Shown here: positions 1,197 to 52,022 of the stretch, piece by piece
Position numbering within the stretch: the first letter of the stretch is position 1
Layout of the letters: every line of letters begins with the position of its first letter
NCBI GenBank assembly: GCA_903944345.1
Contig: CAJARJ010000012.1
Coordinates: 4,266 to 68,265, forward strand
DNA length: 64,000 nt
From: Candidatus Omnitrophota bacterium
GTDB taxonomy: Bacteria; Omnitrophota; Gorgyraeia; Zapsychrales; Fredricksoniimonadaceae
Direction: 5' to 3'
Translations under genes and position numbers: made by a program
The notes under the pieces: generated by a model
Seen by the model: only the letters and a program-made list of their open reading frames with translations
The model's database searches: none
Told to the model about the DNA's origin: nothing

Positions 1197-1210
1197 TGGA
1201 TTATCCTTTC

Positions 1211-3960: not shown

Positions 3961-3976
3961 ACTTTTGTCTTCTTTC

Positions 3977-5356: not shown

Positions 5357-5364
5357 ATGCCCTC

Positions 5365-6999: not shown

Positions 7000-7051
7000 A
7001 GGTCACTCCTTCAGATCGTTTGATTCTCTGTTTACCCCGCAGCCCCAGGCC

Positions 7052-7435
7052 TTATTCATCCAGCACCTTGTCACCCGATTCGCCTGTTCGGACTCTGTAT
7101 GACTCCAGAATGGGAAGAACAAAAATCTTGCCGTCACCGGGTTTCCCGGTCTGATTAGCCTTGATGATGACGTCCACCGTCTTCTTGACCAGACTGTCCG
7201 GGACAACAACAGTTATAAGACGCTTGGGGATCAATCGCGGCCCGTTGGCATTCAGCTGGGAAATGGCTTCTTCCCGTCCCTCCTGTGCTCCGCTAAGAAT
7301 TCTGAAATCGACATTTCCTTTGCCGCGGCCTAAAACGCGGCCGGTCGCAGTCATCGAAGTGATCCCTGCCGCTTCCAGCGCCTTCTTGGTTTCATTCATC
7401 TTGTTAATACGAATGATCGCCATTATGTCTTTCAT
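7052..7435 (-). CDS. nifI2: PII-family nitrogenase regulatory protein NifI2 (GlnB-like)
   Basis: 127 aa PII fold (MKDIMAIIRINKMNETKKALEAAGITSMTATGRVLGRGKG...GDGKIFVLPI). It is the second of two PII genes between nifH and nifD. Confidence 0.85.
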   Translation of the reverse strand: MKDIMAIIRINKMNETKKALEAAGITSMTATGRVLGRGKGNVDFRILSGAQEGREEAISQLNANGPRLIPKRLITVVVPDSLVKKTVDVIIKANQTGKPGDGKIFVLPILESYRVRTGESGDKVLDE

Positions 7436-7447
7436 GTTTAGTCTCCG

Positions 7448-7786
7448 TTATTCATCTTTCTTGCCGGTACTGACGGTATAAACCTCTTCAACCGGAGAAA
7501 CGAATACTTTGCCATCACCGAAATTTCCCTTGGCTCCGGTCCGGGCCGCCTCCATGATGCGCTGGACAACAAATTCCTTGTCTGCCGCCGGAATAACTGT
7601 CATCAGAAGTTCTTTGGGCAGTTCGTCATAATGAATATCGCCAACCTTTAAACCTCTTTGTTTGCCGCGACCAAAAACTGAAACTTTGGTGACTGCCGGA
7701 TAACCTGCATCCAGCAAAGTTGCAAGCACCGCATCCGCCTTCTCGGGTCTTACAATAGAACGAACGAGTATATGTCCCATGACCAT
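7448..7786 (-). CDS. nifI1: PII-family nitrogenase regulatory protein NifI1 (GlnB-like)
   Basis: 112 aa PII fold (ILVRSIVRPEKADAVLATLLDAGYPAVTKVSVFGRGKQRG...GDGKVFVSPV), immediately downstream of nifH. Confidence 0.85.
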   Translation of the reverse strand: MVMGHILVRSIVRPEKADAVLATLLDAGYPAVTKVSVFGRGKQRGLKVGDIHYDELPKELLMTVIPAADKEFVVQRIMEAARTGAKGNFGDGKVFVSPVEEVYTVSTGKKDE

Positions 7787-7797
7787 CCCTCCTGTAT

Positions 7798-8739
<942 letters not shown>

Positions 8740-16907: not shown

Positions 16908-18782
16908 TCAGTCCGGTTTTGAATCCTTGAAGAACAGCTCCTGAAAACAACGCACAACTTTTGAGGGGGATGTTTCGACCGGAGTCAGAAAAAGTCCATG
17001 TTTGCGGAAAAAAAGGCCTAAAGCAGGGTAACTGACAACAACCGAAATAGGCACAGCCAAAAGAAGAGGGAAAACAATGATCGAGACCCAGAAGAACAAG
17101 GTTTTATTGACCATAAAAGTTAACACCGCCCATAAAAATGCTCCAATCATTCCGGGGCCGTAAGCATGAAAAGCCTCGGCAAATGAGGTGCTTTGTGAAC
17201 GCCGCACCTGTGGTTTCCAGACCAGCTTTTGTCCAACAATATTCAAAACAACATACCAGCTGTGAAAAATCATTCTTAAAGGGGCCAACAAGGTCGAGAA
17301 AACAGTTTCCAGAATGACGCCCAGAGCCAGATTTCTAATCCCGCCGAAACGTTTGGCTTTCTCCGGCGAAAAAGCTAATAAAAGAACTCCAAGAAACTTG
17401 GGAAGAAGAAGAAAAGTTCCGGTAACCAGCAAAAGACGAAAGGAGAGCGCGTGATGCTGCACAGGCCACTGAGGAAACAGAACCTTCTCTGCACCCGGGA
17501 AATATACTATGTCCTGAAGAAAATTGGATACAGCATAAAGGGTCATCAGCAGTAAAAGAAGAAACCAGAGAAAAGATGAGAAATAGAACAGATTACCATT
17601 GAGAAAAAGAAGGCGATGGCCTACGGCGATCCCTTTCATGAATATAAGCCGCAGGTGCTGAATATTCCCCTGGCACCAGCGGCGATCCCTCTCCAGTTCT
17701 TCCAGGAGATTCGGGGGTAATTCCTCGTAACTTCCTTCAAGCTCGTAAGCAAGCCATACGCCCCATCCGGCTCGTCGCATCAAAGCGGCCTCTACAAAAT
17801 CATGACTTAAAATCTCACCTCCGAACGGAGGTCCTCCTGGAAGCTTGGGTAAGGCGCAGTACTGCATAAACGGGGCTACCCGAATGATGGCATTATGCCC
17901 CCAATATCCGGACTGATCAAGCTGCCAGTAGCGCAAACCGGAAAAAAACAAAGGGCCATAAACATGACTGGCAAACTGTTGTAAACGGGAAACCAGACTG
18001 CTCTGGTTCATGGCCACAGGAGCTGTTTGCAAGATACCGATATCATCCCTGGCTTCCATAACATTCACCATCTTGACCAGCAGCTCCCCCTCCATAAGGC
18101 TGTCAGCATCAAAAATGATCATGTATTTGTACTGACTGCCCCAGCGGCGGCAGAAATCACTCACATTCCCACTTTTCTTATGAATACGGTGTTTTCTGCG
18201 ACGATAGAAAATTCTCCCAAAACCATCGACGTCGCGGCAGAGCTCCGACCAGGCTGTTTCTTCCATAAGCACATACTCGCTCTGGACAGAATCGCTTAAT
18301 ATAAAAATATCAAACTTGTCCAGCTGTCCTGTTTCCCGGAGTGATTCATAGGTGCTTCTCAAGGAAGAATAGATGCGGGCCATTTCTTCATTATAGACCG
18401 GCATGATCAAGGCGGTCTTAGTCGCCGAGGAAACAGGCAGAGGGGAGTCTGGCAATACAAGCTCATTCTTTGCCCCACCTAATGAGGCCAGAAAACCAAA
18501 AATCACTGTCCAGAAATTAAACGATATCCAGGCAAAAAGAAAGATATAGATAGCAACAATAAAAATAGCCAGAATCGAGAACCCATGGGTGCCAATAATT
18601 GTGGCAAAGGCCGAACCGGCAATGAAAGTCGAAACGGCCACCAGAACAAAGAAGACGCTACGCCGGATAAACAAAAGAAGACTGTTGCCGGCAAGATCAT
18701 CACGGACAAAAACAGGCCGGGATAAAGGCCGATAGCCCATAGGTGTTCTGTGTAAAGGTGGCTGTTTTGCTGAGCGAATCAT
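16908..18782 (-). CDS. opgH: Glucans biosynthesis glucosyltransferase H (OpgH/MdoH)
   Basis: 624 aa polytopic GT2 protein with the OpgH-like motifs IMPVYNE and FDADSLM. Confidence 0.88.
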   Translation of the reverse strand: MIRSAKQPPLHRTPMGYRPLSRPVFVRDDLAGNSLLLFIRRSVFFVLVAVSTFIAGSAFATIIGTHGFSILAIFIVAIYIFLFAWISFNFWTVIFGFLASLGGAKNELVLPDSPLPVSSATKTALIMPVYNEEMARIYSSLRSTYESLRETGQLDKFDIFILSDSVQSEYVLMEETAWSELCRDVDGFGRIFYRRRKHRIHKKSGNVSDFCRRWGSQYKYMIIFDADSLMEGELLVKMVNVMEARDDIGILQTAPVAMNQSSLVSRLQQFASHVYGPLFFSGLRYWQLDQSGYWGHNAIIRVAPFMQYCALPKLPGGPPFGGEILSHDFVEAALMRRAGWGVWLAYELEGSYEELPPNLLEELERDRRWCQGNIQHLRLIFMKGIAVGHRLLFLNGNLFYFSSFLWFLLLLLMTLYAVSNFLQDIVYFPGAEKVLFPQWPVQHHALSFRLLLVTGTFLLLPKFLGVLLLAFSPEKAKRFGGIRNLALGVILETVFSTLLAPLRMIFHSWYVVLNIVGQKLVWKPQVRRSQSTSFAEAFHAYGPGMIGAFLWAVLTFMVNKTLFFWVSIIVFPLLLAVPISVVVSYPALGLFFRKHGLFLTPVETSPSKVVRCFQELFFKDSKPD

Positions 18783-31938: not shown

Positions 31939-33267
31939 TTAAATTTCCTCCCAGGAAAGCGTAATGTAGTCTCCAGTCGTCGGCATATATGGCGGTGGGG
32001 CACCAAGAAGCCGTGCGTCATAACCGTAATCCTTGGAATAACCCGTTGCTTTTGTTCCGGTACGACTGTCAAAAGTACCAACTGGTCCGCGTTCTTTCTG
32101 AATAATGCCTCCATAAACAGTCAAAGTCCCACGGGGAGATCCAAGCCAGTAATTTTCAAGGAGGAACGAGTCTCCCATAGACATAATACAGGAATTGATT
32201 TCCATATTTGTCGGAGCCGCATCGTCAATAACAACATCTCTTTCGGCAATAATTCCCAAAGTATCATCTGAAGCAGGATCCGTTCTGGGATCGTCTGCAT
32301 ATACCACACTGCTGGGAATAACCACGTCTTTCTGGGCTCCGACCGTAAGACGGCCATTAAGGGTTCCGGATATCGTTAAACTCCCCCCGTTACGGCAATT
32401 ACTCCCGTCGCAGACAACAAAAAGAGCACCATTGGCAGGAATAGGCATGTTCCTGTTTGTCCATCTGTTATAACTATTGGTGACATTCATTGTTCCGTTG
32501 GAGTTAAGCACAATGGTCGTATTCCCCCGCAAGGAAAGCCCTCCGCTGGAAGCAGCAGAACGCAGTCCCAAAGCCTGTGACGGCATCGTAGTGACTTCCG
32601 CGCCAAAAGTAAAGCCTTGCTGGAAATCCGGCTCGTCATTCGGGGCATTGGTAGTCTGTTGAAGATTGACTGCGGAGCCATTATTATAAAACTTGATGTA
32701 CGTATCAACCGACTGCGCCTGACTTTCAAAAACCGGATCCTGATTGATATTGAAATGCCCATTGGTGTGTGTCGGACCGTTAAGACGGTCGCCGGCGGTA
32801 AACCAGACATTCGTTCCTTCAAACAGTTCCTGATCGGTAAACCACAAATAACGGGCATAATTGTCAACCTGCAGATATTTGACGAGCACCCGGGAGGAAC
32901 CAGAATGTGTCCCGGTGGCAGTGACTTTATATCTGCGGATATTCCCGGTTGCTCCCACAAGACCAAGATCAGTGATTGTGGCACTATAAGTCCCGCCTCC
33001 CAGCGCCTGCGTTCCTCCCCATGGATTGGTATAATTTCCAGTTGGAGGTGCGGACTGAGCCCGCAACCAGACAACTGCTCGGGCAAGCCCGGATTCCGCC
33101 AAACTAAACGACTTGGCTCGTTGCGCGGAACTCATGGCCAAAAGATTCTGACTCACACCGGTGGCCAGAAAAGCCGCCCCGTAAACCACCAGAAGACTGG
33201 TGATAATCAGACTAAACGCCAGGGCGATTCCTCTGTTATTCCTAAGCCGGTGCTCAATACATCGCAT
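31939..33267 (-). CDS. pilX: PilX-like type IV pilus minor pilin/assembly protein (PilX_N domain)
   Basis: The N terminus MRCIEHRLRNNRGIALAFSLIITSLLVVYGAAFLATGVSQ matches the PilX N-terminal hydrophobic segment. 442 aa with a Gly/Thr/Asn-rich body. Confidence 0.65.
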   Translation of the reverse strand: MRCIEHRLRNNRGIALAFSLIITSLLVVYGAAFLATGVSQNLLAMSSAQRAKSFSLAESGLARAVVWLRAQSAPPTGNYTNPWGGTQALGGGTYSATITDLGLVGATGNIRRYKVTATGTHSGSSRVLVKYLQVDNYARYLWFTDQELFEGTNVWFTAGDRLNGPTHTNGHFNINQDPVFESQAQSVDTYIKFYNNGSAVNLQQTTNAPNDEPDFQQGFTFGAEVTTMPSQALGLRSAASSGGLSLRGNTTIVLNSNGTMNVTNSYNRWTNRNMPIPANGALFVVCDGSNCRNGGSLTISGTLNGRLTVGAQKDVVIPSSVVYADDPRTDPASDDTLGIIAERDVVIDDAAPTNMEINSCIMSMGDSFLLENYWLGSPRGTLTVYGGIIQKERGPVGTFDSRTGTKATGYSKDYGYDARLLGAPPPYMPTTGDYITLSWEEI

Positions 33268-33269
33268 AA

Positions 33270-33788
33270 CTAGTTCCTCATCCTTACCTTAAGCTGCGAA
33301 GAATCCTGCATGGTTCGGCCCGCATCGGAAATCTTGCTGGCTGTAATATCAATCTGCAAAATGTCGGCCGGGGAATTTGACCGGGTAAATTGCAGGCTCG
33401 AGATGTTTCGAGCCACAACCGAGGTTGTGCCGGCAAAAGTTCTGGTGATCTGACCTGAACCGTCGAGAGCATACACAATATCAGCAGACCACTCGATGTA
33501 ACCTGAAGCATCTAGAATAGTGCCATCATTATTGGTATCCTGAGGAATACGAAAGGTCAACGAATTCGAAGAGGCTCCGCTGCCGAGACTGATCTGGGCC
33601 GGGCGGGTCTTTTTAAGATCCAGTTCCATCCTGGAAAATGATCTGACCAGCTCCTGGCGCAACTGCACAGACACATCACTGGTCAGCCAGTTCTTGGCTC
33701 CGATATCCATAATCTGGAACGATCCAAGCATGAGGATAACCAGAATGGACAAGGAAAGCAGAAGTTCTACCAGCGTCATACCCTTCAT
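33270..33788 (-). CDS. Prepilin-type N-terminal cleavage/methylation domain protein (minor pilin or pseudopilin)
   Basis: MKG|MTLVELLLSLSILVILMLG is the class III signal and methylation motif. 172 aa. Confidence 0.7.
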   Translation of the reverse strand: MKGMTLVELLLSLSILVILMLGSFQIMDIGAKNWLTSDVSVQLRQELVRSFSRMELDLKKTRPAQISLGSGASSNSLTFRIPQDTNNDGTILDASGYIEWSADIVYALDGSGQITRTFAGTTSVVARNISSLQFTRSNSPADILQIDITASKISDAGRTMQDSSQLKVRMRN

Positions 33789-33791
33789 GTG

Positions 33792-34310
33792 TCATCCATT
33801 CGAAATCAGGGTTACAAGTTTTACCGGTGACTCAAGAATTCCGTCTGCATCAGCACGTTCTCCGGTATCCAGCCGGCCATTAAGATTGGTATCCCCGCCA
33901 ATAATTCTGTTCCCCTGCCGCCAGCTGAGAGTAATGGTGACCTTGACCAGCTCGGAATTGCTGTCATCTACAAACACCGCACCCCGGCTTTCAGGAATAT
34001 CGTTGAGAACAAAAGTTACCTGATCGTAGTTATCGACAAGATTGACAAATGAACTGGCCCGAATCTCTTCCATAAAAGAAGCAGCGGCATTGGCGGCTGT
34101 ATTGGTATTTCGGGCAATACTTATCAAGGCGGCACAGGAAATAAAGGCCCCGACAATAGCACAAAGGACGCCAGCCAGAATAGCAGTAGCTACAAGCACC
34201 TCGACAAGAGTGATTCCGCGACATGATGCTCGGCAAGATTTCTGAAAGAAGAAAAGGATGCTCACGGGGCCTCCATCGCACGAAGTCAGGAAAGTCGTAC
34301 GCGTGCACAA
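33792..34310 (-). CDS. Prepilin-type minor pilin or pseudopilin with an unusually long leader
   Basis: RG|ITLVEVLVATAILAGVL is the prepilin motif, preceded by a 32-aa leader if the ATG at 34310 is used. No closer in-frame ATG, GTG or TTG is present. Confidence 0.6.
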   Translation of the reverse strand: MCTRTTFLTSCDGGPVSILFFFQKSCRASCRGITLVEVLVATAILAGVLCAIVGAFISCAALISIARNTNTAANAAASFMEEIRASSFVNLVDNYDQVTFVLNDIPESRGAVFVDDSNSELVKVTITLSWRQGNRIIGGDTNLNGRLDTGERADADGILESPVKLVTLISNG

Positions 34311-34526: not shown

Positions 34527-37349
34527 TTACAGGCCCAAGAACACAAACAATGTTGTATCGGCCGGGCGGATATCAATTATGAAGGGAGCAAGCCCTGCAG
34601 CGAAACGGATTGCCTGGGCTTTCACGGGATCAAACACGATACTATTGCCAACTTCTTGAGTCAGAATCTGCAAACCTGATCTGTCAGGGGCAAGATCAAT
34701 GCCGCCTTTCTGATCCGGAGAAATCTTGGACTCCTCGTGGAGATGCACTCCGGAATCATCCACACTTATCCATGTATAAGTCTGCTCTCCCGGAGTATCG
34801 TGGCGACCCCATTCATTGCAGTTTGACCATGTGCCGGAGTTGACATACTGCCAGGCAGTCTCCCCCTCAAGAAGCATCCCCAGAAAACCCTCCCCCGGCT
34901 TCTGGGGTTCATGAGTATGGCCATAAACAATATAACGCTTCCATTGCTCAACAGGAATGTCCTTAAACAAATCCGGGTAAAGATACGGCAGAAGCTCGTC
35001 CCATAACTCGCCCAACTGTCTGATCCTTTTCTTCTGGGCACTAACCAGAAACAGCTGGAACCCGGAAACATTCTTTATCATAAAGGTCATAAAAGGGAAA
35101 AACATATCATTCTCGACAAACTGATTTAGAGTCCCCCAATGACGGTTTGACAACGCACTCATGAAGTTATCAAGGACACTTCCCCCTGCCTGTTTATTAT
35201 TAAACTTGTCGGGAACATGTCCGTGTTCAAAGTGCAGGATCTGACCTGCGGCAGGACGGACAATAACCACATACCGGCTGATAATCATTCTGTCTTTCCG
35301 GTCTTTATTCACCACTTCAAGAAGTTTATGTCCGATATCATCATTGAGGTCCGCTATCATTTTCTGTACATACAACACAGCCTTCGCCAGGGGCATCGAA
35401 AGGACAGAGTCGTCAAACCAGACATATCCTTCTTTGTCCATAACCGGGCCATAAGGCAGCTTCGCCCGGGTAAGCCTGGCAATATCTTTGGCCTTGGCCG
35501 CCCGGATAATGTTCTGAAGTTGTTGCGTGCGGGCAAAATCGGTAATCTCCAGATTTTGAGCCATCTTGGCCAGATGACGCCTCTTTTTTGCGAGACGTTC
35601 CTTGAGGATAACATCATCGTGATTACCTGCAACATAAAACACCTTGTCACAACGGGCTAAAGCTTCAAAGAAAACCTGATAGGACTGATAGACATCGCCG
35701 TAGCGATTCTTCTGAAGCTCGAGGATATCGCCATTGAGCACAACCACCTGTTTCTCTTCTGCCGCAATGCGCAACAGGTCAAGCAATTCCGGTAAACGCC
35801 CGGCAAAAGCGTCATGCGAATCTCCTGCCCCCAGGTGAATATCAGAAAGATTCAGAACCTCCTGATCGGTTCTGTAAATAAAGGTTCTTTGCTTTTTGCT
35901 CCAGCGCTTTACCTCCTCAAGCAAGGCCTCCGCCCGCTTGGCAAGCCTGGGATGCCGCTTCATTCGTTTGCCGAAAAAAGCATCCACTTTCCCGTTATGA
36001 ATGGAGAACAATATGGACTCCTTCTTATACTTCTCCTGCCAGAACCAGCCACCCGCAATCGCCTGCTGAATAAAACGTACGACTTGCTTCTTCTTGTCAC
36101 CGGTAACCCCCAGCCACTGGTCTTGCGATCCGTTATGAAAAAGCATCAAAGGGTTCTTTTCGGCAACCTTGCGCCAGGCTCTGGCTGGCGAAGAAGATAG
36201 TGCCTCGTCTGGCTCTGCCGACTGCGAAAAATCAGCCCTGTCGTCCGGAACAATTTGCATGGCCGTGCGAATGATCATGGTTCGCCCGGAAAACCCGGGA
36301 AGGGATACATCCTCGGAAAAAGGGCGAATATCCATAGCGGCGTCCACTCCCAGATCAAATCCTCCGGAAAAATATTTTCTCGGCAGTGGCTGACCGCCAG
36401 AAGAATCCGGATCTTCTGCAATATGCGTATAGGCACCCGTATTAAATCCCTGAGCATACCGCTTCCATATGTCATGCGGTTCTTGCGGATTGGCAATACT
36501 TACTCCGGCAGTTTTGGCGCGATCTGCATACTCCTGTGACAACACAGACTGCTTCATTTTGATCTTGTACCAGGCGGCAAGAATCAGGGAATGATACACC
36601 TGACGTAATTGGGCAAAATAGCTGCCTTCATTAACCTCTTTTTCTATAACCGGGATAACGACCTCGCGTAAAACAGAAACAGCCATAGAGGAAATTTCAG
36701 AAGTGGTATCAACGCTCGCAGCGTTATAATCCCTGTCAAGGATCACTTCAAGCCGGGCTTCGGCCACATACGCCGCTCCGGCATTTTCATAGACCACAGC
36801 TTTGCGGGGAACAATCCAGACCTTATTGATCAGCTCTAATGGAATATCGGTGGTGCCGTACTTTTGCTGTGCCAAAGCATATATCTTTTGCCAGAACTTC
36901 TCACCAGTCTTGTCTTGCGGGAACAACAAGGCCGTCGTTAACTGTTTAAGCAGATAATCCTGGGCCAGAAGATCGCGTCCCATCTCCGTCAGGCCGAAAG
37001 TTGGAGGAATAACACGATTTTCTTCGTACGGGCTCAGGTTAACCCACAGATCATGCTCGGGAATGGTCAAAGCGGCCAAAAAGTACTTAAGCAAACGGGT
37101 GGAGTCAACCCTGATATCATTAAATGAAATATTGGCATCCCCTTTATCAAGAATGAAATCAAACCTTAAGGGTTCATCCGGATAAATTTTTATGCCTTGA
37201 AGAAGGGGGGGATTAAGTGCCTGGCTTGGGGCCGACACCTGGCCGGGAAAAAGGTCGACTCCTGCCTCAAGAGGAGACAAGTTAACAGACACAAATACCA
37301 ACAAAATGATAAAAGTTAAGAACTTCATCACAAAAACCGGGAATGCCAA
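34527..37349 (-). CDS. Large secreted protein, paralog 1: novel conserved N-terminal domain, calcineurin-like metallophosphoesterase module and conserved C-terminal tail
   Basis: 940 aa with a signal peptide MKFLTFIILLVFVSVNLSPLEA. The N-domain motifs LRFDFILDKGD, WVNLSPYE, TEMGRDLLAQDY, GTTDIP, LAAWYK and RKYFSGGFD are shared with the 851-aa and frameshifted paralogs. The metallophosphoesterase motifs are SDIHLG, NGDILE, GNHD, HFEHGH and GHTHEP. The tail is GGIDL...AGLAPFIIDIRP. Confidence 0.8.
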   Translation of the reverse strand: MAFPVFVMKFLTFIILLVFVSVNLSPLEAGVDLFPGQVSAPSQALNPPLLQGIKIYPDEPLRFDFILDKGDANISFNDIRVDSTRLLKYFLAALTIPEHDLWVNLSPYEENRVIPPTFGLTEMGRDLLAQDYLLKQLTTALLFPQDKTGEKFWQKIYALAQQKYGTTDIPLELINKVWIVPRKAVVYENAGAAYVAEARLEVILDRDYNAASVDTTSEISSMAVSVLREVVIPVIEKEVNEGSYFAQLRQVYHSLILAAWYKIKMKQSVLSQEYADRAKTAGVSIANPQEPHDIWKRYAQGFNTGAYTHIAEDPDSSGGQPLPRKYFSGGFDLGVDAAMDIRPFSEDVSLPGFSGRTMIIRTAMQIVPDDRADFSQSAEPDEALSSSPARAWRKVAEKNPLMLFHNGSQDQWLGVTGDKKKQVVRFIQQAIAGGWFWQEKYKKESILFSIHNGKVDAFFGKRMKRHPRLAKRAEALLEEVKRWSKKQRTFIYRTDQEVLNLSDIHLGAGDSHDAFAGRLPELLDLLRIAAEEKQVVVLNGDILELQKNRYGDVYQSYQVFFEALARCDKVFYVAGNHDDVILKERLAKKRRHLAKMAQNLEITDFARTQQLQNIIRAAKAKDIARLTRAKLPYGPVMDKEGYVWFDDSVLSMPLAKAVLYVQKMIADLNDDIGHKLLEVVNKDRKDRMIISRYVVIVRPAAGQILHFEHGHVPDKFNNKQAGGSVLDNFMSALSNRHWGTLNQFVENDMFFPFMTFMIKNVSGFQLFLVSAQKKRIRQLGELWDELLPYLYPDLFKDIPVEQWKRYIVYGHTHEPQKPGEGFLGMLLEGETAWQYVNSGTWSNCNEWGRHDTPGEQTYTWISVDDSGVHLHEESKISPDQKGGIDLAPDRSGLQILTQEVGNSIVFDPVKAQAIRFAAGLAPFIIDIRPADTTLFVFLGL

Positions 37350-37370: not shown

Positions 37371-39926
37371 CTATTGGAAGATGGAAACAGCCGGATCAAC
37401 TATCCGGTCGATCCCGATAATCCGCGGTGAAAGTCCTGCTCTTACGGCCGGCAGAGTGGCTGAATCGATATTAAAATGAATCGGTCCACCATCATTAGCG
37501 ATATCCAGCTTCATATTGCGAGTGGACATATCAATACCACCCACCGGCTCAACCGCCTGACTCGCATCGGCTATTCTTTTATGCAAAACATCCTGACTCC
37601 AGTGATCCTTACTGTCTTTCACTGACCGATAATCGTTAGCGATGGCCTCAAGAGACTCTGCAATCGTTCTGTCCCACCCACCCCATGTGCCCGCAAACTC
37701 TGGAATCAATCCCCTTGAATATTTCAACGCCAGATCATACGGATTGGAATTTGCGTATTCAACAAGATCCGCATCGACAATCAAAACTTCCGGAGTCCCG
37801 TCCTGGGCGGACTGAAGAATAAAATTCGCAGCTCGGGGGTCATTTATCAGGATTCCTCTGCCTACAAGTGTACGGAACAGACGGATAAGAGCCTTGATAA
37901 TGTCCTCGTTCATTGTACCGGCGGCAATCACCTTATCCAGAGAGTCACCTGACATCCATTCCACAGCCAGAAGTTCTCTGCCATTGGTAGCCTTGATCAC
38001 TGCAACCCATGCCGGACCAACTCCCTCTTGTTCGACTATTCTGAAACCGTCTTTAATCTCCTTAAGAACAGTATCCATCCTGATCGGCGCCCGAATAGCC
38101 ATATGCTGGTTTTTATAGACATCATGGTTACCGCCAGATCCGACATATTCCTGCTGAACCCCTTTCATAATCAAGGTTTTTTCTCTTCCCTCAACCTGAA
38201 CGGGTTTCGACCGGCCCAGATGAATCAGCTGGGAGAACCGCTTGAGAGAAAAATTCATTAAAACACGCTGAAGCTGTCGTTCTAAAGAGGAATCATCTAT
38301 CTCCAGCACAACCTGATGAACACCAGGCCCCAGAGCAGGCAAAACCAGGTCATTAAGAAGAAGATAGTTCATCGGTTGTTGCCAATATTGACGCCAGAGT
38401 TCTTTATTGGTTATCTTCCTGATAATGATCATTTTCTCACCATACTGCCCGGCATACACGTCTTCGTTATCAGAAGACTTCAATAATCTGGTCTTCTCGA
38501 CATTATCTGTCACAAAACCACGTAAAAAACGCCGCCTTGTATTCTCAAGATCTTCATTAAAAGCAGCCACAGATGTCCCGAGCGAATCAAAAAAAGTCGC
38601 CATGCCCGGACTAGTGCGCTGATAAAGAAAGGTTTTAACAACTACCTGGCTTAACCTGAGAATATAATCCGGGGTAGCCTCTCTCCTTGAAATATCCGGT
38701 TTCTGCGCCATATCTGTCGATATATCCGAACGGCTGTCCTGAGGCTCTACCAAAACTCCTACTCTTATCAACCCTTGCGGATTATTAGCAAAAAGATTGC
38801 TGGAAATCTCCTGTAGGGATGCACGTTCCATCGCTTTATCGAAGTCCGGCGCAAACCCGCCCGAGAAATATTTGCGCAATAGCGGGTCACCCGAAAAAGG
38901 ATCCGCCTCTTCTTTGATATAACTAAAAACACCCTGCCTGAAAGCGGCCATGTATTGCTGGTAAATTTCATTAAGTACTTTGGGATCTCTAAGATTAACT
39001 CCATCCGTCTTGCCTTTGTCAACGTACTGATCGTACAAGATACCTTCCTTGACCTTGCGCTTGTACCATGCCGCCAACGCCATGGAGTAATAAATCTTGC
39101 GCAACAAGGCGAAACTTTCACCATCATTGATTTCTTTCTCGATAACAGGAAGAATAATTTCACGCAACCCGGGTTGAACCTGATTTTCTTCGGCCTCGTT
39201 ATGGACACTATTGCCAGATTGCACCTTCTCCGCCAGATAATCGCGCTCCAGCGCGACTTTCATCCTGGCATTCGCCAGCATGGCTATATTTCCATTCTCA
39301 TAAAACGCCGCTTTGTCCGGGCTGATCCAGACTTTATTGAAAACATCAAACGGAATATCAGTAGTTCCAAAGGCTTCCTGCGCACGCCGATAAACGTCAG
39401 TCCAGAATTTCTTCCCCAACGGTGCCTCGGGGTATACAAGAGAAGCCATAATCTGTTTGAGCATATAATCCTGAGCCAACAGGTCACGCCCCATCTCGGT
39501 ACGGGCAAAATTTTCACTAACAATCCGCTTATCTTCATAAGGAGAAAGGTTGACCCACTGCTCCTCTTCCGGAACAGTCATTGCTGCCAGAAAATATTTA
39601 ACCAGTCTCTCGGATTCAGCGGTCAGCGCCTCACCGGAAAGCAGCTCGTCTCCCTGATCCATAAAGAAATTAAAACGAAAAGGATTATTGATGTCCACCT
39701 GAATGCCAACCAGGCAAGCGGGCTTGAACCCGTGGCTGACATCAACCATAGATCCCGGCAACGGCAAGGCTACGCCTTCAATGGCATATACCGGCAAAGA
39801 ATTGATGAATAACACCTGAACAATAATAATATGAAATAGAATGCGAAACATCAGTTTCTCCCAAACATTCAAACTTTCAGAATTATGAAACTTACCACCC
39901 GATAATAAATATAATATATATATCAA
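37371..39926 (-). CDS. Large secreted protein, paralog 2: same N-terminal domain and C-terminal tail, with a putative kinase-like internal module
   Basis: 851 aa with a signal peptide. The N-domain is FRFNFFMDQGD, WVNLSPYEDKR, TEMGRDLLAQDYMLKQ, GTTDIP, LAAWYKRK and RKYFSGGFA. The internal region has a Gly-rich loop VGSGGNHDVY, ILINDPRAANFIL and LIVDADLV, which suggests a kinase-like fold. The tail is GGIDM...AGLSPRIIGIDR. Confidence 0.8.
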   Translation of the reverse strand: MIYILYLLSGGKFHNSESLNVWEKLMFRILFHIIIVQVLFINSLPVYAIEGVALPLPGSMVDVSHGFKPACLVGIQVDINNPFRFNFFMDQGDELLSGEALTAESERLVKYFLAAMTVPEEEQWVNLSPYEDKRIVSENFARTEMGRDLLAQDYMLKQIMASLVYPEAPLGKKFWTDVYRRAQEAFGTTDIPFDVFNKVWISPDKAAFYENGNIAMLANARMKVALERDYLAEKVQSGNSVHNEAEENQVQPGLREIILPVIEKEINDGESFALLRKIYYSMALAAWYKRKVKEGILYDQYVDKGKTDGVNLRDPKVLNEIYQQYMAAFRQGVFSYIKEEADPFSGDPLLRKYFSGGFAPDFDKAMERASLQEISSNLFANNPQGLIRVGVLVEPQDSRSDISTDMAQKPDISRREATPDYILRLSQVVVKTFLYQRTSPGMATFFDSLGTSVAAFNEDLENTRRRFLRGFVTDNVEKTRLLKSSDNEDVYAGQYGEKMIIIRKITNKELWRQYWQQPMNYLLLNDLVLPALGPGVHQVVLEIDDSSLERQLQRVLMNFSLKRFSQLIHLGRSKPVQVEGREKTLIMKGVQQEYVGSGGNHDVYKNQHMAIRAPIRMDTVLKEIKDGFRIVEQEGVGPAWVAVIKATNGRELLAVEWMSGDSLDKVIAAGTMNEDIIKALIRLFRTLVGRGILINDPRAANFILQSAQDGTPEVLIVDADLVEYANSNPYDLALKYSRGLIPEFAGTWGGWDRTIAESLEAIANDYRSVKDSKDHWSQDVLHKRIADASQAVEPVGGIDMSTRNMKLDIANDGGPIHFNIDSATLPAVRAGLSPRIIGIDRIVDPAVSIFQ

Positions 39927-46387: not shown

Positions 46388-48668
46388 TCAATAATTCTGT
46401 GTGTCACTAATTATTTTATACGGATCTATAGAGATAATAACCGGTGAGAATCCGGCAGCGTTCTGCATCTGCTGAAGCTGCTCAGAGGTCAGGTCTACCT
46501 CGATTGCAGTGCTATTATTCCGTGTCTCAAACTGGGCATTGTCGGGGTTCAGGTTAATACCACCGACTGCTTCCTGCCCAGGCAGAGAAGACAAGGGCTT
46601 TTCCATCAAAATTCCCCATTCTTCATTCATCCTCCGGGACAACTCCCAGGATTTCTGCAACAAACTTCCTCTATTGCGGCTCTTGAGCAGCGCAAGAACT
46701 TCTTCCGCATAAAATTGCTGATCCTTATCAAGAACAAGTGGTTTATACCCCAACATTCTATACAAAACAAAATTGGCTAATCCGTGAGGCAAAGTGCTGC
46801 CAATTACAAGAGAATCATAACCAGACTCGACTGCCAGTTCCTCGAGAGACTTAAGAATACTTTTAAATAATGCGCCCGCGTAAGGGAAAGATGGATACAT
46901 CTGTGACGGATACAACATGCGTTCCTCGTTTCGCAAGCGCTCCAGCAACAACTGCACGTTTGTATCATCGTCTTTCACCTTCAGAGCCGATTCAATTTGC
47001 GTTTGTCTCAGGCCCACGCTGGCCTCAGCAAAAGAAAGAAGAACTTTGCGATCCTGCCAGTCAAACTGCGGTAAAGCTTGCATAAACACGCCCTTTAACT
47101 GCTCCAAAACTTTCTCCAAATTACGCTTTCCCCACTCATCTGACCCCATCCAGATTTTCTGCGTCAGGATTACAGGTGACGAGGTGGTCATCTCCAGATG
47201 GGCCCGGCCGATGATTAACGAGTTGCGATCAAAACCACGACCATTCAATAAATTAAATTGGATAAAAACACCCTGATTATTCCTGTAGACAAGATCGTAA
47301 CTGTCGAAATCATCGGACTGGATTATCTCTCCCAGAAGCGTACGGGTTGTAAGCGTTCGCCCGGGGCCTCTTAAGATATCAACTTGCGGCTCATCATAAT
47401 ACTGCGACAATATCCCCTCCAGACGCTCTTTCTGACGTTCAATCAGCCGGCTAAACTGCTCTCTATCCGCTCTGGAACGTTTAACCTTCAGTTTGGGTAA
47501 AACAGACTCCTGAGCCGGATCTCCTGGCAGAACAGAGGTCTCTTCACGAACAATCACCAGTCTGTCAGCAGCACTCGGCCCCAGGTCAACCGGCCATACG
47601 TCCGATTTTACTGTCAGAGAACTATCCATTGCCCAATCAATACCGCCGGAAAAATATTTTCTGACCAACACTTCGTCAAACAATGCATCAGGTTCTTCCT
47701 TAATAAAATCATACGCGCCCTTGCGGAAGGAAACGACATAATCCTTCCAAATACGGTCCACTTCCCCGGGGTCTGGAATATTTATTCCGGCAACCTTATT
47801 CCGGTCAACGTAAACAGCGGACAATAATGATTGTCTGATCTTTCGTTTATACCAGGCGGCAAGAATCAAAGACTGATAAACCTGTCTGAGCGTCGCAAAG
47901 TTCTTACCTTCATTAACCTCTCGCTCCAGTTCAGGAATGACCATCGTACGTAAAGCTTCCTCCATCATCATATGATCCGGACTTGCGGTTTGGGGCACCG
48001 CACTTTTTTCTTGTGCCAGATAATCACTTTCCAGCTTAACCTCCAAGTGAGATTCGGTTACATAAGCCAGCCCCATCTCGCCATTCTCAAATACTACAGC
48101 TTTTCCAGGAACAATCCAAACCTTGTTCAACGTATCAAGCGGAATATCCGTAGTGCCATATTTTTCCAGGATCCGGGCGTAAATTCTCTTCCAGAATACT
48201 TTTCCAATCTCCCCTTCAGGGTTAAGAGTCTTTGCGGTGATTTGCTTGAGAAAATAATCCTGCACCAGTAAATCTCGCCCCATCACAGTCTGCCCAAAGG
48301 CTGGGGGAACGATGCGATTTCTTTCATATGGACTCAGGTTAACCCAGAGGTCATTTTCAGGAATTGTCAGGCTGGCAAAAAAAATATTTAATCAGACGGG
48401 TTGATTCACTTTTGATCTGGTCATTAGTAATTCTTTCATCGCCTTTATCAAGAATAAAATCAAACCTGAGCGGATTTCGAGGATATACCCTAATTCCTTT
48501 TAATACAGGCGGATTGAACGCCGGACTTAAAGACACCACCTGACCACCGGGAGGAGTCAAAATCGGCTCCCCGGCATACAGAATAACTGGGCTCAAAACA
48601 TGTGCCAGAACTATCCAAATGATGACAAATTTTCTTAGAAACATGAAGGAAAGATACCTGACCAACAC
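46388..48668 (-). pseudogene. Large secreted protein, paralog 3: frameshifted in an A8 homopolymer, with its 3' end overwritten by an element terminal repeat
   Basis: The N-terminal ORF 48357-48668 (signal peptide, then LRFDFILDKGDE...KYFFCQPDNS-stop) and the ORF 46388-48286 (MMGRDLLVQDY...) are joined by a +1 shift inside a run of 8 A (48377-48384). With 7 A the reading is KYFFASLTIPENDLWVNLSPYERNRIVPPAFGQTVMGRDLLVQDY, collinear with paralogs 1 and 2. The last 9 codons (KIISDTQNY-stop) are encoded by the element TIR at 46391-46415. Confidence 0.7.
46391..46415. repeat. Solo terminal inverted repeat of the 133-bp element (inverted left end)
   Basis: AATTCTGTGTGTCACTAATTA matches 21 of 21 of the reverse complement of the element's left end (AATTAATTAGTGACACACAGAATT). 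No internal element sequence follows. Confidence 0.6.
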
Positions 48669-48836: not shown

Positions 48837-49175
48837 TTATTTAATGCTCAGAAAATTGTTCAGATTATCATCTCCAGCCAGAACGATTGCGATATCCCCC
48901 GCCGTCGTTATTTCCCGCACGGTATCTACCTCGCCCCTTAACGTCACAATCTCCCTTTCAACAGTAACATCAATGTTGTCCAGCACCCCAGACAAGGACG
49001 TTTCCCGACCTAAAGCATCTTGAATATCTATAGCCAGGTCATTATCGATTCCCGTTGTATTCATCCTTGATCCGTCTTTAAGGTCTGCCAGAATTTTTGC
49101 ATTCTGCGAATCTTCATTTAACTTTTCATTTCTCTCCAACGATAACCCTGTCAAAACTGCCTGGGAATTTAACAT
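48837..49175 (-). CDS. BON-domain (OsmY-like) protein
   Basis: 112 aa BON domain pattern (LADLKDGSRMNTTGIDNDLAIDI...GEVDTVRE), preceded by the RBS AAGGAGAA. Confidence 0.65.
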   Translation of the reverse strand: MLNSQAVLTGLSLERNEKLNEDSQNAKILADLKDGSRMNTTGIDNDLAIDIQDALGRETSLSGVLDNIDVTVEREIVTLRGEVDTVREITTAGDIAIVLAGDDNLNNFLSIK

Positions 49176-49226
49176 TGTATTCTCCTTGATAAAGTTGAAT
49201 AAAACCGGGACTCCCGCCTCTTAAGA

Positions 49227-49264
49227 CTATTCTAGGACGCAGCCGGAATGTATCAATTGTACCG
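49227..49264 (-). promoter_or_regulatory. Conserved promoter motif copy A (TTGATA-N16-TAGAAT with a conserved spacer), upstream of the BON gene
   Basis: Minus strand CGGTACAATTGATACATTCCGGCTGCGTCCTAGAATAG, identical at 32 of 38 positions to the motif at 53292-53329. Confidence 0.55.
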
Positions 49265-49299
49265 GGGTTTAACAAATGAAACCTGGACGCACCACCCCC

Positions 49300-49962
49300 T
49301 CAGGGCTGTTGAATCCTGCCATCCTTCAAAAGAATCTGTCGCCGGGCAAGTCTGGCAAAATCCGGCTCATGCGTCACTAACACAACCGTAGTCTTGTTCT
49401 TTAGATTGACATCGATAAATATTTTCATAACTATATCGCCATTGACACTGTCCAGGCTACCGGTCGGTTCATCGGCAAAAAGGTATTGCGGTTCCATCAC
49501 AAGCGCCCGGGCGATGGCTACCCGTTGCTGTTCCCCGCCCGAAAGCTGACGCGGCAAGCGGGCCATCTTCTCTTTGAGTCCGAACTGCTCCAACAACGAC
49601 TCCGCGGCAGGCCGCCGTTTTTCCTTCTGATGAAGTTTTACTGTAGGCATAAGTACATTCTCGAGCGCGGTTAACTCTGCGATCAGATAATGAAACTGAA
49701 AAACAAACCCCATATGCCGGTTACGAAAAAGGTGAAGATCGTCGGAATTCAATTTCTGCAAATCTTTCCCGGATATTTCAATCTTTCCTTCACTGGGTGT
49801 ATCCAGACTGCTTAAAAGGTACAAGAGCGTGCTTTTCCCCGATCCGGAGCGTCCGGTCAATGCAACAAATTCACCGTCCTGTATCTCCAAAGAAATATCG
49901 CTCAGAACCCGGCTTGGCGGAACACCTATCTCTTTCCCGGCATGTTGAACCACAATACTCAT
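49300..49962 (-). CDS. ABC transporter ATP-binding protein (LolD/MacB-ATPase type)
   Basis: 220 aa with Walker A GRSGSGKST, signature LSGGEQQR and Walker B LFADEPT. Confidence 0.85.
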   Translation of the reverse strand: MSIVVQHAGKEIGVPPSRVLSDISLEIQDGEFVALTGRSGSGKSTLLYLLSSLDTPSEGKIEISGKDLQKLNSDDLHLFRNRHMGFVFQFHYLIAELTALENVLMPTVKLHQKEKRRPAAESLLEQFGLKEKMARLPRQLSGGEQQRVAIARALVMEPQYLFADEPTGSLDSVNGDIVMKIFIDVNLKNKTTVVLVTHEPDFARLARRQILLKDGRIQQP

Positions 49963-51213
49963 CTAAGCTCCTGAGCGAATAATCTGAATAGGAGTAAATC
50001 TGCTGGCAGCGAGGGCCGGCAGGATGCTTGCAAAAGACGATGAAAAAAGCGACAAGAACAATGCCTGGACATAAATCCCGGGAGAGAGTGAAATTTGCAG
50101 GTGTGCCTGGGGATCATACGAACTACCGCCTGAGAAAGGAATAGTTTGCAAATACAGGCATAGAAAATACCCGCATACCAGCCCCAGCAGGCCACCACAA
50201 ATGCCAATAATAATCCCCTGTGAGAAAAACAGTACAACCACATCATATGTGTCATACCCCATTGAGCGCAAAATCGCAATGTCCTGCCTTTTCTGCGTAA
50301 CTGTCATGTTTAGAATATTGTAAATACCAAAACCCGCTACAATTATGACCGTCATTGTCATGGTCCAGCGCAGAATAGTTTGCAATCTGATAACCGAAAG
50401 AATGCTGGCATTCTGCTGGTCCCAACTTTCAGTGCGTTCCGGCGCAATTCTGGACCAGTTGGTGGCTATGGCGGCCGCCTGAGTGTAATCGCTCAGGCGC
50501 ACCCCGATCTCATTAACCTGATTGGGAGTCCCGTTCAGCTTCTGAACGTCATTTAAAGCCCCGTAAGCCTGCGTATCGCTCCCCCGATTTCCTGTCCGAA
50601 ATCGGCCCACAACTTTGAAAGGCACAGGCAAGCCGGTTTTAACCGCCACCAAGAGGGTCTGATCAATGCCGGCTCCAAGGCGTTTCATCAATTCATCTCC
50701 CAGAATAATCCGGTTCCCTCCCGCTCCAATATCGGAAAACTCGCCTTCAATCATGTAATTGGCAATACTTGTCACCTTGCCTTGCTGTTTCGGGTCACAA
50801 CCGACCAGATTGGCTGAAACAGAAACTTTAGCCAAGGTGAATAAAGCCGGAGCTGTCAATAACGGAGCAAAAGCCTCAACCCGCGGATCCGCCTTCAGTC
50901 GTTCATACCAGCTTTGAGGATTCTGAATCCCCAAATAACCGTGTACTCCTGATGGCGGAGATCTCCAGAAGACGTATCGGAACTCCTGGTTGTAAAATGC
51001 TTCGTCAAGTTGATGCTCAGTCAGATAATCTTGCCGGGCCTCGATATGTATCTGTGCCGAATTATTAACAAGCTGCTGAATCATGAATGTCTGAAAACCC
51101 GTAAAAAAACCGGTGACCGCGACATAAGCCAGAGCACCTAAAAAGACACCCAGCAACGTAAAGATCGTCTGCTTTCTGCGTTCCAGAAGATAGCGGATAG
51201 CCAGATAAATCAT
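49963..51213 (-). CDS. FtsX-family ABC transporter permease (LolCE/MacB-type, one periplasmic domain)
   Basis: 416 aa with four TM helices and a large periplasmic loop between TM1 and TM2, the FtsX/MacB-type permease architecture. Confidence 0.8.
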   Translation of the reverse strand: MIYLAIRYLLERRKQTIFTLLGVFLGALAYVAVTGFFTGFQTFMIQQLVNNSAQIHIEARQDYLTEHQLDEAFYNQEFRYVFWRSPPSGVHGYLGIQNPQSWYERLKADPRVEAFAPLLTAPALFTLAKVSVSANLVGCDPKQQGKVTSIANYMIEGEFSDIGAGGNRIILGDELMKRLGAGIDQTLLVAVKTGLPVPFKVVGRFRTGNRGSDTQAYGALNDVQKLNGTPNQVNEIGVRLSDYTQAAAIATNWSRIAPERTESWDQQNASILSVIRLQTILRWTMTMTVIIVAGFGIYNILNMTVTQKRQDIAILRSMGYDTYDVVVLFFSQGIIIGICGGLLGLVCGYFLCLYLQTIPFSGGSSYDPQAHLQISLSPGIYVQALFLSLFSSSFASILPALAASRFTPIQIIRSGA

Positions 51214-52022
51214 TTGTTAAGGTCTTTCCGCACAAGAACACGATCACCAACCCGAAGATCCCCGGAGACAATTTCACTCATAGCCTTGTCGATGATCCCT
51301 GTCTTGACTTCTGCTCGTCTGGGAATTTCATTCCCACGCTTTCGCCAAACATATTGTCCCTGCTCCAGCGCGGCAACCGGCACAAGCAGCACATCCGGAT
51401 GCGTTGCTATTTCGATAGCCACATCCCCGGTCATATCCGGTAATATTCTTAATGGCAAATCCGGAACGCTGATGCGAGCCAGAAAATTACTGTCATTGGG
51501 ATACACCGATTCGACAAGGCCGTTGTAACTCTGACTGCGAATCGTATCGAAACTGACCTTTACCTGCTGCCCTGCCTTGACCTGTAACGCTCCCTGTTGC
51601 TCCAGAGACACCATCAGATATCGTTCCCGCAAATCCACCAGAGAAAGGGCTGAACTCTGCGGATACACATTCTCGCCGACCTTATAAGGAAGAAATGTCA
51701 CGGTTCCGTCAAAGGGAGCCGAAAAAACATTCTCATCAAGATTTATCAGCGGATCACCTTTTTTTACGGCATCACCTTCTTTTACATACAAGGCCATAAC
51801 TGTGCAAATCAGCCCCGGGCGCAGCTGATAACTGTTGCGGGCGGTAACCGTGCCAATACCGTAAACCGACTCGACAATCGTTCCCTTTTGCAAAGGTTCG
51901 GACAAATCACCCGCTGATCGTGCCTTAACAATATTGAGCAGCCAAAACCCCGCCAACAGGAGCACCGCAAATAGCACACTCCAGAAACGATGCGTACTGA
52001 TCCAGATTAAAATAGCTCGCAA
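51210..52022 (-). CDS. Efflux transporter periplasmic adaptor (short HlyD/MacA-like membrane fusion protein)
   Basis: 270 aa with an N-terminal TM anchor, biotin-lipoyl-like and beta-barrel segments (YVKEGDAVKKGDPLINLD...), directly upstream of the FtsX permease and ATPase. Confidence 0.7.
   Translation of the reverse strand: MRAILIWISTHRFWSVLFAVLLLAGFWLLNIVKARSAGDLSEPLQKGTIVESVYGIGTVTARNSYQLRPGLICTVMALYVKEGDAVKKGDPLINLDENVFSAPFDGTVTFLPYKVGENVYPQSSALSLVDLRERYLMVSLEQQGALQVKAGQQVKVSFDTIRSQSYNGLVESVYPNDSNFLARISVPDLPLRILPDMTGDVAIEIATHPDVLLVPVAALEQGQYVWRKRGNEIPRRAEVKTGIIDKAMSEIVSGDLRVGDRVLVRKDLNK

Follow-up and report, generated by a model that had tools for sequence, protein, structure and literature searches.

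A conserved C-terminal tail paired with an N-terminal domain around variable cargo in a putatively exported protein family of Omnitrophota

Conserved modules at the ends of otherwise variable proteins are known from several bacterial export systems. Sorting signals of the sortase, exosortase and rhombosortase type (LPXTG, PEP-CTERM and GlyGly-CTERM) place a short motif ahead of a transmembrane (TM) helix and a cluster of basic residues at the very C-terminus; the cargo of the type IX secretion system (T9SS) of Bacteroidota has a Sec signal peptide, a C-terminal domain (CTD) and diverse middles, with many such proteins per genome; and the MARTX toxins are giant substrates of the type I secretion system (T1SS) that have no Sec signal peptide, glycine-rich repeats at their ends and a cysteine protease domain for release. 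Here we analyse a 64,000-nucleotide stretch of DNA (hereafter the window) from a Candidatus Omnitrophota bacterium (assembly GCA_903944345.1, contig CAJARJ010000012.1, positions 4,266 to 68,265 of the forward strand), in which three paralogous genes, p1, p2 and p3, encode proteins that end in a conserved tail of ~60 amino acids (aa). The initial annotation took this tail for a possible C-terminal sorting or secretion signal. It proves to be the C-terminal end-piece of an Omnitrophota-specific, massively expanded family of exported modular proteins, and we favour, at a probability of roughly 0.45, the reading that the tail and a conserved N-terminal domain (N-domain) act as two ends that jointly carry a cargo. 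Such a protein runs from a Sec signal peptide through an N-domain of ~300 aa, a linker, a cargo of 220 to >2,000 aa and a second linker to the ~60-aa tail and a polar extension.

A C-terminal tail coupled to a conserved N-domain

The tail module occupies 34530..34715 in p1 (DQKGGIDL...FLGL), 37374..37556 in p2 (a divergent version lacking the terminal FLGL) and 46391..46582 in p3 (VGGINL...SIDP, again lacking FLGL), all on the minus strand, as are the other features of the three genes given below. A family hidden Markov model (HMM) built from other family members only, leaving out the window sequences, detects the three at E 1e-19 to 5e-13, with 48.8, 36.7 (HMM positions 4-53) and 57.9 bits respectively. 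The similarity that the initial annotation saw among the tails is therefore real (BLASTP pairwise identity 31-36% over ~50 aa, E 4e-5 to 4e-8), and the three peptides it quoted are all found near the C-termini of p1, p2 and p3 on the minus strand, at ~34563-34709, 37404-37544 and ~46421-46567, most of which its intervals span. Its description of them as the last 50 residues was wrong, however, in that 10-11 more residues follow the quoted tails and the family module is ~60 aa long. A six-frame translation of the window searched with an HMM of the three tails gave no copy beyond these.

Across the family the tail has the consensus kGGIDLTPanMnLQtqN.g..IkFhlDPAMLQQLQNApGFtPVIInIQPm.dl..FLGL, of which p1 alone among the window tails keeps the terminal FLGL, and can be condensed to the signature GGIDL...G-x-x-P-[VI]-I-[IV]-x-I...(FLGL); the window tails are divergent members, scoring 37-58 bits versus a median near 100 in the sampled set. 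In an alignment of 83 tails four residues (G, G, G and P) never vary and six more (I, D, D, I, P and F) hardly do, while identity to the p1 tail is mostly 25-50% (82% for one close ortholog) and the family-wide median is 47%. An extension of 0-28 aa (median 9) follows FLGL and is rich in S, A, N, Q and T, with 6% K and 3% R. A TM-like segment, defined as an 18-aa window with Kyte-Doolittle (KD) hydropathy >1.8, occurs in just one of 252 tails, and no basic cluster was found at the tail C-terminus, the extension after FLGL being polar; the tripartite anatomy of a membrane-anchored sorting signal is therefore ruled out.

The initial annotation described the parts upstream of the tail as divergent domains, which holds for the unrelated middles of the three proteins; the signal peptide and the N-domain, in contrast, are common to all three. 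In p1 a Sec-type signal peptide (MKFLTFIILLVFVSVNLSPLEA, then cleavage before G; 37263..37328) has a hydrophobic core of KD 3.1 and an AXA-like site, and the same pattern of basic n-region, hydrophobic core and AXA-like site (for example SYA or VYA before Q, LEA before G) recurs in 105 of the 115 family members for which a Met start was called. The N-domain, delimited from alignments in p1, lies at 36360..37262 in p1, 38856-39782 in p2 and ~47642-48569 in p3, is ~300 aa long and 46-60% identical among the three, and ends in each protein (p3 after repair of a frameshift, see below) in an invariant RKYFSGG. It has no match in Pfam, NCBIfam, PDB or BFVD. Modelled alone with AlphaFold2 (AF2), its core reaches a predicted local distance difference test score (pLDDT) of 85-95 and is predicted to contain two long beta-hairpins together with long helices.

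Searching with p1 brought up a very large number of relatives, the best 120 of which were analysed. Where named, relatives of p1 are proteins from metagenome-assembled genomes (MAGs) of Candidatus Omnitrophica or Omnitrophota. The best 120, which are 540-1,632 aa long, align over the N-domain only (31-43% of the query), with two exceptions that cover 99% of p1, an identical copy and an ortholog at 83%. By the three-sequence tail HMM, 109 of these 120 carry a single tail, which never lies more than 28 aa from the C-terminus. Searching for other proteins that end in the tail, as the initial annotation had proposed, yielded thousands of carriers: among 1.84 billion representative proteins, a profile of 83 tails matched 4,584 cluster representatives at E<=1e-3, and at the stricter E<=1e-10 still 1,668; the tail is C-terminal in all 150 matches listed. 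The tail is thus distributed far more widely than the three paralogs, to which its confinement would have spoken against a signal; yet it is indeed, as that alternative supposed, the end of one common family scaffold.

We also scanned genomes, one per species, with peptide patterns derived from a tail alignment of a narrower subfamily, towards which this sample is therefore biased. The scan gave 158 confirmed tail sites, from which 79 loci were kept, with up to eight loci per MAG even though only one tail subfamily was targeted. All 79 come from MAGs labelled as Omnitrophota or Omnitrophica or carrying bulk labels, so that as far as sampled the tail family is multicopy and restricted to this phylum. 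Among the bulk-labelled loci (for example L002, L004, L041 and L045) many are assigned to 'uncultured Planctomycetales', one to 'Alphaproteobacteria' and one to 'bacterium'. Such labels on contigs of the family probably reflect coarse or wrong taxonomy or mis-binned contigs.

The loci were retrieved through the tail alone, and the sample is therefore unbiased regarding the N-terminus. Among the tail-bearing open reading frames (ORFs), 47 also encode the N-domain and 27 are truncated at the 5' end of the contig; the nine uncut ORFs with only a tail are all explained as pieces of interrupted genes or fragments at contig edges. Three of the nine directly follow an in-frame N-domain ORF with a single TAA between them; in two more, the preceding ORF is interrupted by a TAA and is itself truncated by the contig end or extends up to it; another lies behind an N-domain ORF, in frame with it but separated by several stops; one copy is frameshifted multiple times; and the last two begin no more than 34 nucleotides (nt) from the end of their contig. 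In the metagenome library many tail matches are short or Met-initiated and have no N-domain; four long proteins of this kind were checked in their contigs, where one has N-domain fragments upstream in other frames and the other three start within 58 nt of the contig end. A clean tail-only gene was thus not found among the 79 tail-retrieved loci and the four long proteins without N-domain.

Of the three window genes, p1 (34527..37349) is a complete ORF of 940 aa that probably starts at the ATG at 37328 (Met8), giving 933 aa; the ENA protein P0001 (933 aa) is 100% identical to p1 from Met8 on, which fixes this as the likely start. Directly upstream and in tandem lies p2 (37371..39926), an ORF of 851 aa with a probable ATG start at 39851, the gap between the two being 21-42 nt. 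The third gene, p3 (46388..48668), is split into two ORFs (48357-48668 and 46388-48286, the latter of 632 aa) by a frameshift at a T8 homopolymer (48377..48384) within the conserved KYF[FL]A codons, and removal of one T yields a 759-aa conceptual protein collinear with p1 and p2. This frameshift could be a sequencing error, a mark of a pseudogene or a case of slipped-strand phase variation. Decayed copies are frequent in the family at large, and include, besides p3, genes with an in-frame TAA and multiply frameshifted genes, consistent with rapid turnover of the family. Single in-frame stops were seen in related MAG genes at L037:4135, L071:3649, L065:303, L012:1989 and 87, and L077:291; all six are TAA, and in three genes the N-domain was detected just upstream of the stop. 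These in-frame TAA codons could stem from pseudogenisation, programmed readthrough or recoding.

Cargo replacement between co-diverging ends

Between the two ends the proteins have little in common. The p1 cargo region (34716..36332) is unrelated to the middles of p2 and p3 and includes a calcineurin-like metallophosphoesterase (Pfam PF00149, E 9.3e-9, residues 498-588, ~35586-35858); that of p2 has a weak kinase-like match (ABC1, E 0.006, below the Pfam cut-off), and that of p3 has no recognisable Pfam domain. Among the best 120 relatives of p1 the precomputed Pfam domains are extremely varied, and in nine relatives checked against Pfam every cargo domain falls between residue ~395 and the tail. 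The types encountered are ART-PolyVal, B12-binding with radical SAM, S-adenosylmethionine (SAM) methyltransferases, histidine phosphatase, GNAT acetyltransferase, phosphoribosyltransferase, GGDEF and guanylate kinase. Cargo length ranges from 222 to 2,163 aa in 122 complete members, among which no 'empty' protein made of N-domain and tail was seen.

An all-against-all comparison of 125 complete proteins (7,750 pairs) separates the history of the ends from that of the middle. N-domain identity and tail identity co-vary (Spearman 0.64, Mantel p ~0.001), while cargo similarity at E<1e-5 occurs in only 29 of the 7,750 pairs, and the nearest N-domain relative has the same cargo for only three of the 125 proteins. 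Even in pairs with N-domains 80-87% identical and tails up to 87% identical, the cargo is unrelated and of different length. Since the ends co-vary and the middles are unrelated, the ends are co-inherited and the middle is replaced, that is, the family has a cassette architecture. One family member, P0121, has at residues 618-636, inside its cargo, a partial second copy of the tail opening (HMM positions 2-20) besides its terminal tail, which may be a scar of recombination between family genes.

The junctions at which cargo and ends meet have a likeness of their own. The invariant YFSGG at the end of the N-domain is often followed by x-D-[LF]-A-M and resembles the tail opening GGIDL; at the p3 junction, which reads YFSGGIDWAMD, the tail HMM gives a local match. 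The linker motif D-x-A-M appears as DAAM in p1 (36333..36344), DKAM in p2 (38829-38840) and DWAM in p3 (47627-47638), and is present in 70 of 129 windows after YFSGG (54%) and 44 of 129 before GGIDL (34%), compared with 13 of 730 random cargo windows (1.8%). From sequence likeness, this suggests either that cargo was inserted into an ancestrally continuous protein or that both linkers may serve one purpose, for example processing, strand pairing or a clasp.

Known export systems and the role of the two ends

We compared the family with described systems through Pfam-A (2025 copy) and NCBIfam release 20, both of which hold models for the T9SS CTD, PEP-CTERM, LPXTG and dockerin modules. Full-length p1-p3, isolated tails and the N-domain gave nothing for either the tail or the N-domain; the 83 tails at E<=1 returned scattered noise and a sub-threshold COMM_domain only, and single tails at E<=10 gave no T9SS CTD match. 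The COMM domain (PF07258) was matched below threshold by 19 of the 83 tails, at a best E of 2e-4 and with the listed match at 13.9 versus a cut-off of 22.4 bits, and we rejected it: hhalign of the tail profile against COMMD1 gave a probability of 0.08%, and a PDB sequence-profile search with the tail gave no COMMD chain. Nor did PDB profile searches with the tail and with the full-length family find a significant relative.

The sorting signals of sortases, exosortases and rhombosortases differ from the tail both in their tripartite anatomy and in matching curated models. T9SS cargo (Por_Secre_tail, TIGR04183) comes closer, with a signal peptide, a conserved C-terminal module and diverse domains between; however, the 83 tails match no CTD profile, the phylum is a different one, and T9SS cargo has no common N-domain, whereas the GGIDL tail always comes with one and so has no independent distribution. 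MARTX toxins share with the family the conserved ends and a swappable enzymatic middle, and their effectors act in the cytoplasm of another cell, but p1-p3 and nine relatives have no Pfam domains for glycine-rich repeats or a cysteine protease, and the family has Sec signal peptides. More generally, T1SS substrates of the RTX type are set apart by the signal peptides of the family (105/115) and by its single GGID motif in place of tandem GGxGxD nonapeptides. In the TpsA and CdiA proteins of two-partner secretion (TPS) a domain of ~250-300 aa also stands right after the signal peptide, followed by a variable effector part, with many paralogs and decayed copies; the TPS domain is a beta-helix, in contrast to the family N-domain, which is predicted to be helix-rich with two beta-hairpins and has no PDB match.

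Like polymorphic toxins in general, the family combines conserved parts with hypervariable enzymatic cargo. In polymorphic toxins, however, the variable part stands at the C-terminus and is followed by an immunity gene, whereas that of the family is internal and capped by the tail, and no recurrent downstream gene family was detected in the 79 loci. Dockerins are, as a functional analogy, C-terminal modules of ~60-70 aa found on many different exported enzymes for docking to a scaffold, and dockerin-bearing giant proteins have been reported in Omnitrophota (10.64898/2026.06.07.730766); the 83 tails nevertheless give no Dockerin_1 match, show one GGID motif where dockerins have a Ca-binding loop-helix in duplicate, and accompany a common N-domain that dockerin enzymes lack. 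The PE/PPE proteins of mycobacteria are likewise a lineage-restricted expanded family with a conserved N-terminal domain, diverse C-terminal regions including enzymes, and dedicated export, but they have neither a Sec signal peptide nor a C-terminal cap, leave through the type VII secretion system (T7SS), and show no sequence or fold relationship to the family. The closest analogies are thus functional only, each failing in at least one defining feature tested. We found no description of the family in the open-access literature searched, including Omnitrophota genomics papers, which is not proof of novelty, and the family is apparently undescribed.

How might the two ends work? In the two-part carrier that we favour, they would handle the cargo together once it has passed Sec, and the tail would be the element through which a constant endogenous partner, either a lineage-specific machinery or the N-domain itself, recognises or docks the protein; this partner would secrete, anchor or deliver the cargo. 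The strong conservation of the tail across paralogs and species argues for such a constant partner and against variable targets. SAM, NAD+, acetyl-CoA, GTP and phosphoribosyl pyrophosphate (PRPP) are not available outside the cytoplasm. Many of the cargo domains need cytoplasmic co-substrates of this kind, and the likeliest destination of the cargo is therefore the inside of another cell, in line with the proposal that predators or parasites make up most of the Omnitrophota (PMC10066038). In its furthest form, which we consider doubtful, the idea would amount to a protein-delivery system of Omnitrophota in which a carrier made of the N-domain, with a novel fold, and the GGIDL tail brings many interchangeable enzymes of cytoplasmic type per genome, such as radical SAM, methyltransferase, GNAT, ART, kinase and GGDEF domains, across the envelope and on into other cells, and the junction motifs release or hold the cargo; if true, this would be a new logic of secretion and effector delivery and the main effector repertoire of the phylum.

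Several observations weigh against the two-part carrier. The protein P0108 (L083:5001-8099, 1,032 aa) has a complete N-domain and no tail anywhere downstream; it is the only verified tail-less member, and means that the tail is not absolutely required. The signal peptides were called by hydropathy and cleavage-site pattern and not by a dedicated predictor. AF2 of full-length p1 (58 family rows) reaches a mean pLDDT of 54.5 with the tail below 50, and gives no confident tail fold or docking, although a tail that is unmodelled while the N-domain is modelled at equal alignment depth is compatible, as a model-based argument, with an element that may fold only on its partner. Clustering of the neighbouring ORFs of the 79 loci gave no recurrent family save a tyrosine recombinase/Xer group, and a link between the family and the pseudopilin-like genes beside p1 was rejected as coincidence, a pilin-like neighbour being present in only one of the 79 loci; any machinery is not encoded beside the family genes. 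Finally, nifHDKEN and the genes for P-II proteins, glycogen enzymes and MdoH make the window organism look metabolically self-sufficient rather than like a reduced obligate predator, which weakens a strict predator-effector reading.

Two other accounts also give both ends a part. It is conceivable, if on the unlikely side, that a single ancestral domain was split by cargo inserted as a loop into two halves, the N-domain and the tail, which still fold back onto each other, so that the tail is structural and has no role in recognition, an account that is itself compatible with the carrier idea. The mimicry of GGIDL by YFSGG-x-D-[LF]-AM with its local tail-HMM match, the enrichment of D-x-A-M in both linkers, the co-variation of N-domain and tail identities, and the constant company of the N-domain wherever the tail was inspected in a gene would all follow from it; the co-variation, however, is also expected from plain co-inheritance, the core of the N-domain models confidently without the tail, the full-length p1 model has neither a confident tail nor docking (tail pLDDT <50; no contact map), a natural tail-less member exists, and the smallest cargo seen is 222 aa, with no 'empty' protein. 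Less likely still, in our judgement, is an effector that delivers itself in the manner of MARTX or AB toxins, its ends being the translocation apparatus and the GG and D-x-A-M motifs processing sites for cargo release. Here the variable enzymatic middle between conserved ends, the need of the cargo for cytoplasmic co-substrates, the presence of conflict-type domains such as ART-PolyVal, the long helices and two long beta-hairpins of the N-domain model, the motifs at both junctions and the predatory or parasitic lifestyle inferred for Omnitrophota (PMC10066038) are set against the want of any significant pore-former or translocation fold (NheA and MakB probabilities 0.02-0.05, TM-scores ~0.1), of a family-wide protease domain in Pfam scans of p1-p3 and nine relatives, and of the Sec-independence that marks T1SS-secreted MARTX toxins.

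The idea with which the initial annotation began, a free-standing sorting or secretion signal of the sortase, exosortase or T9SS type that can be attached to any exported protein, stands in so far as a conserved module does sit at the C-terminus of thousands of carriers with Sec-type signal peptides and unrelated middles. As a free-standing signal it is improbable and largely refuted on distribution, since the tail never occurs apart from the N-domain in the genes inspected; it also has neither TM helix nor basic end, none of the 83 tails matches a curated sorting-signal model, and a sortase- or exosortase-like gene was found neither in the window nor recurring near family genes. That the conserved ends have no specific function, being a vertical remnant or serving only as DNA homology arms for cassette recombination, we hold to be very improbable. 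All carriers do belong to one family, the turnover of cargo between the ends does imply recombination and decayed copies are frequent, but the tails are too divergent to serve as DNA homology arms, it is the protein sequence that is conserved (at 31-36% identity the tails of p1-p3 still keep G, G, G, P and the hydrophobic pattern), and their retention through repeated cargo replacement implies purifying selection.

Omnitrophota are ubiquitous and uncultured, and attention has so far gone to their Tad pili and giant proteins. The present family is large, confined to the phylum in every locus examined and absent from Pfam and NCBIfam; it consists of exported proteins with a conserved handle and variable cargo, in which both conserved domains are apparently new and the two-ended handle is unusual. 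Its enzymes dependent on SAM, NAD+, acetyl-CoA, GTP or PRPP, placed behind Sec signal peptides, make little sense except as proteins that act within another cell. Should the ends be a delivery handle, the family would be a ready catalogue of candidate effectors, the tail would offer a route to the missing machinery, and the scaffold would be a natural plug-and-play one, because cargo of 222-2,163 aa is tolerated between the ends. Even with an ordinary function, the family provides two new conserved domains with defined boundaries and profiles.

Genomic surroundings of the family genes

No T9SS genes turned up among the annotated ORFs of the 64-kb window. Directly downstream of p1 are two prepilin-type N_methyl proteins (33792-34310 and 33270-33788, minus strand) and with them a DUF4900 protein (31939-33267, minus strand), which together look like a minor-pilin or pseudopilin cluster (31939-34310). 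Upstream of p3, at 48837-52022 on the minus strand, Pfam identifies a BON-domain protein, a MacB/FtsX-type ATP-binding cassette (ABC) permease and an HlyD-family membrane-fusion protein, and the ORF at 49300-49962 is ABC ATPase-like by sequence.

Further away on the minus strand, positions 1-8730 hold a nitrogenase cluster in which NifH, NifD, NifK and NifE exceed their NCBIfam cut-offs while NifN falls just short; two small ORFs, one of them P-II-like, lie between NifD and NifH, and a NifB-like radical SAM ORF, recognised from its sequence, runs off the window start. A glucosyltransferase of the MdoH type, for osmoregulated periplasmic glucans, is encoded at 16908-18782 (minus strand); its 773.7 bits, compared with 419 for the equivalog cut-off, speak for a conventional diderm periplasm.

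In the other genomes, the recombinase group that recurs near family genes includes five tyrosine recombinase/Xer matches of ~295 aa, located 2.7-4.1 kb downstream of the tail, which look like one syntenic locus repeated across related genomes. Larger tyrosine recombinases of ~340-380 aa also occur, at a distance of a few kb from family genes, in three other loci (L057:412-1548, L009:5100-6122 on the minus strand, and L010:4346-5422), one of them with a zinc-ribbon-like N-terminus. Two genes upstream of the tail-less P0108 a large autotransporter with PATR repeats is encoded (L083:1-4046), and locus L057 carries three family genes in tandem.

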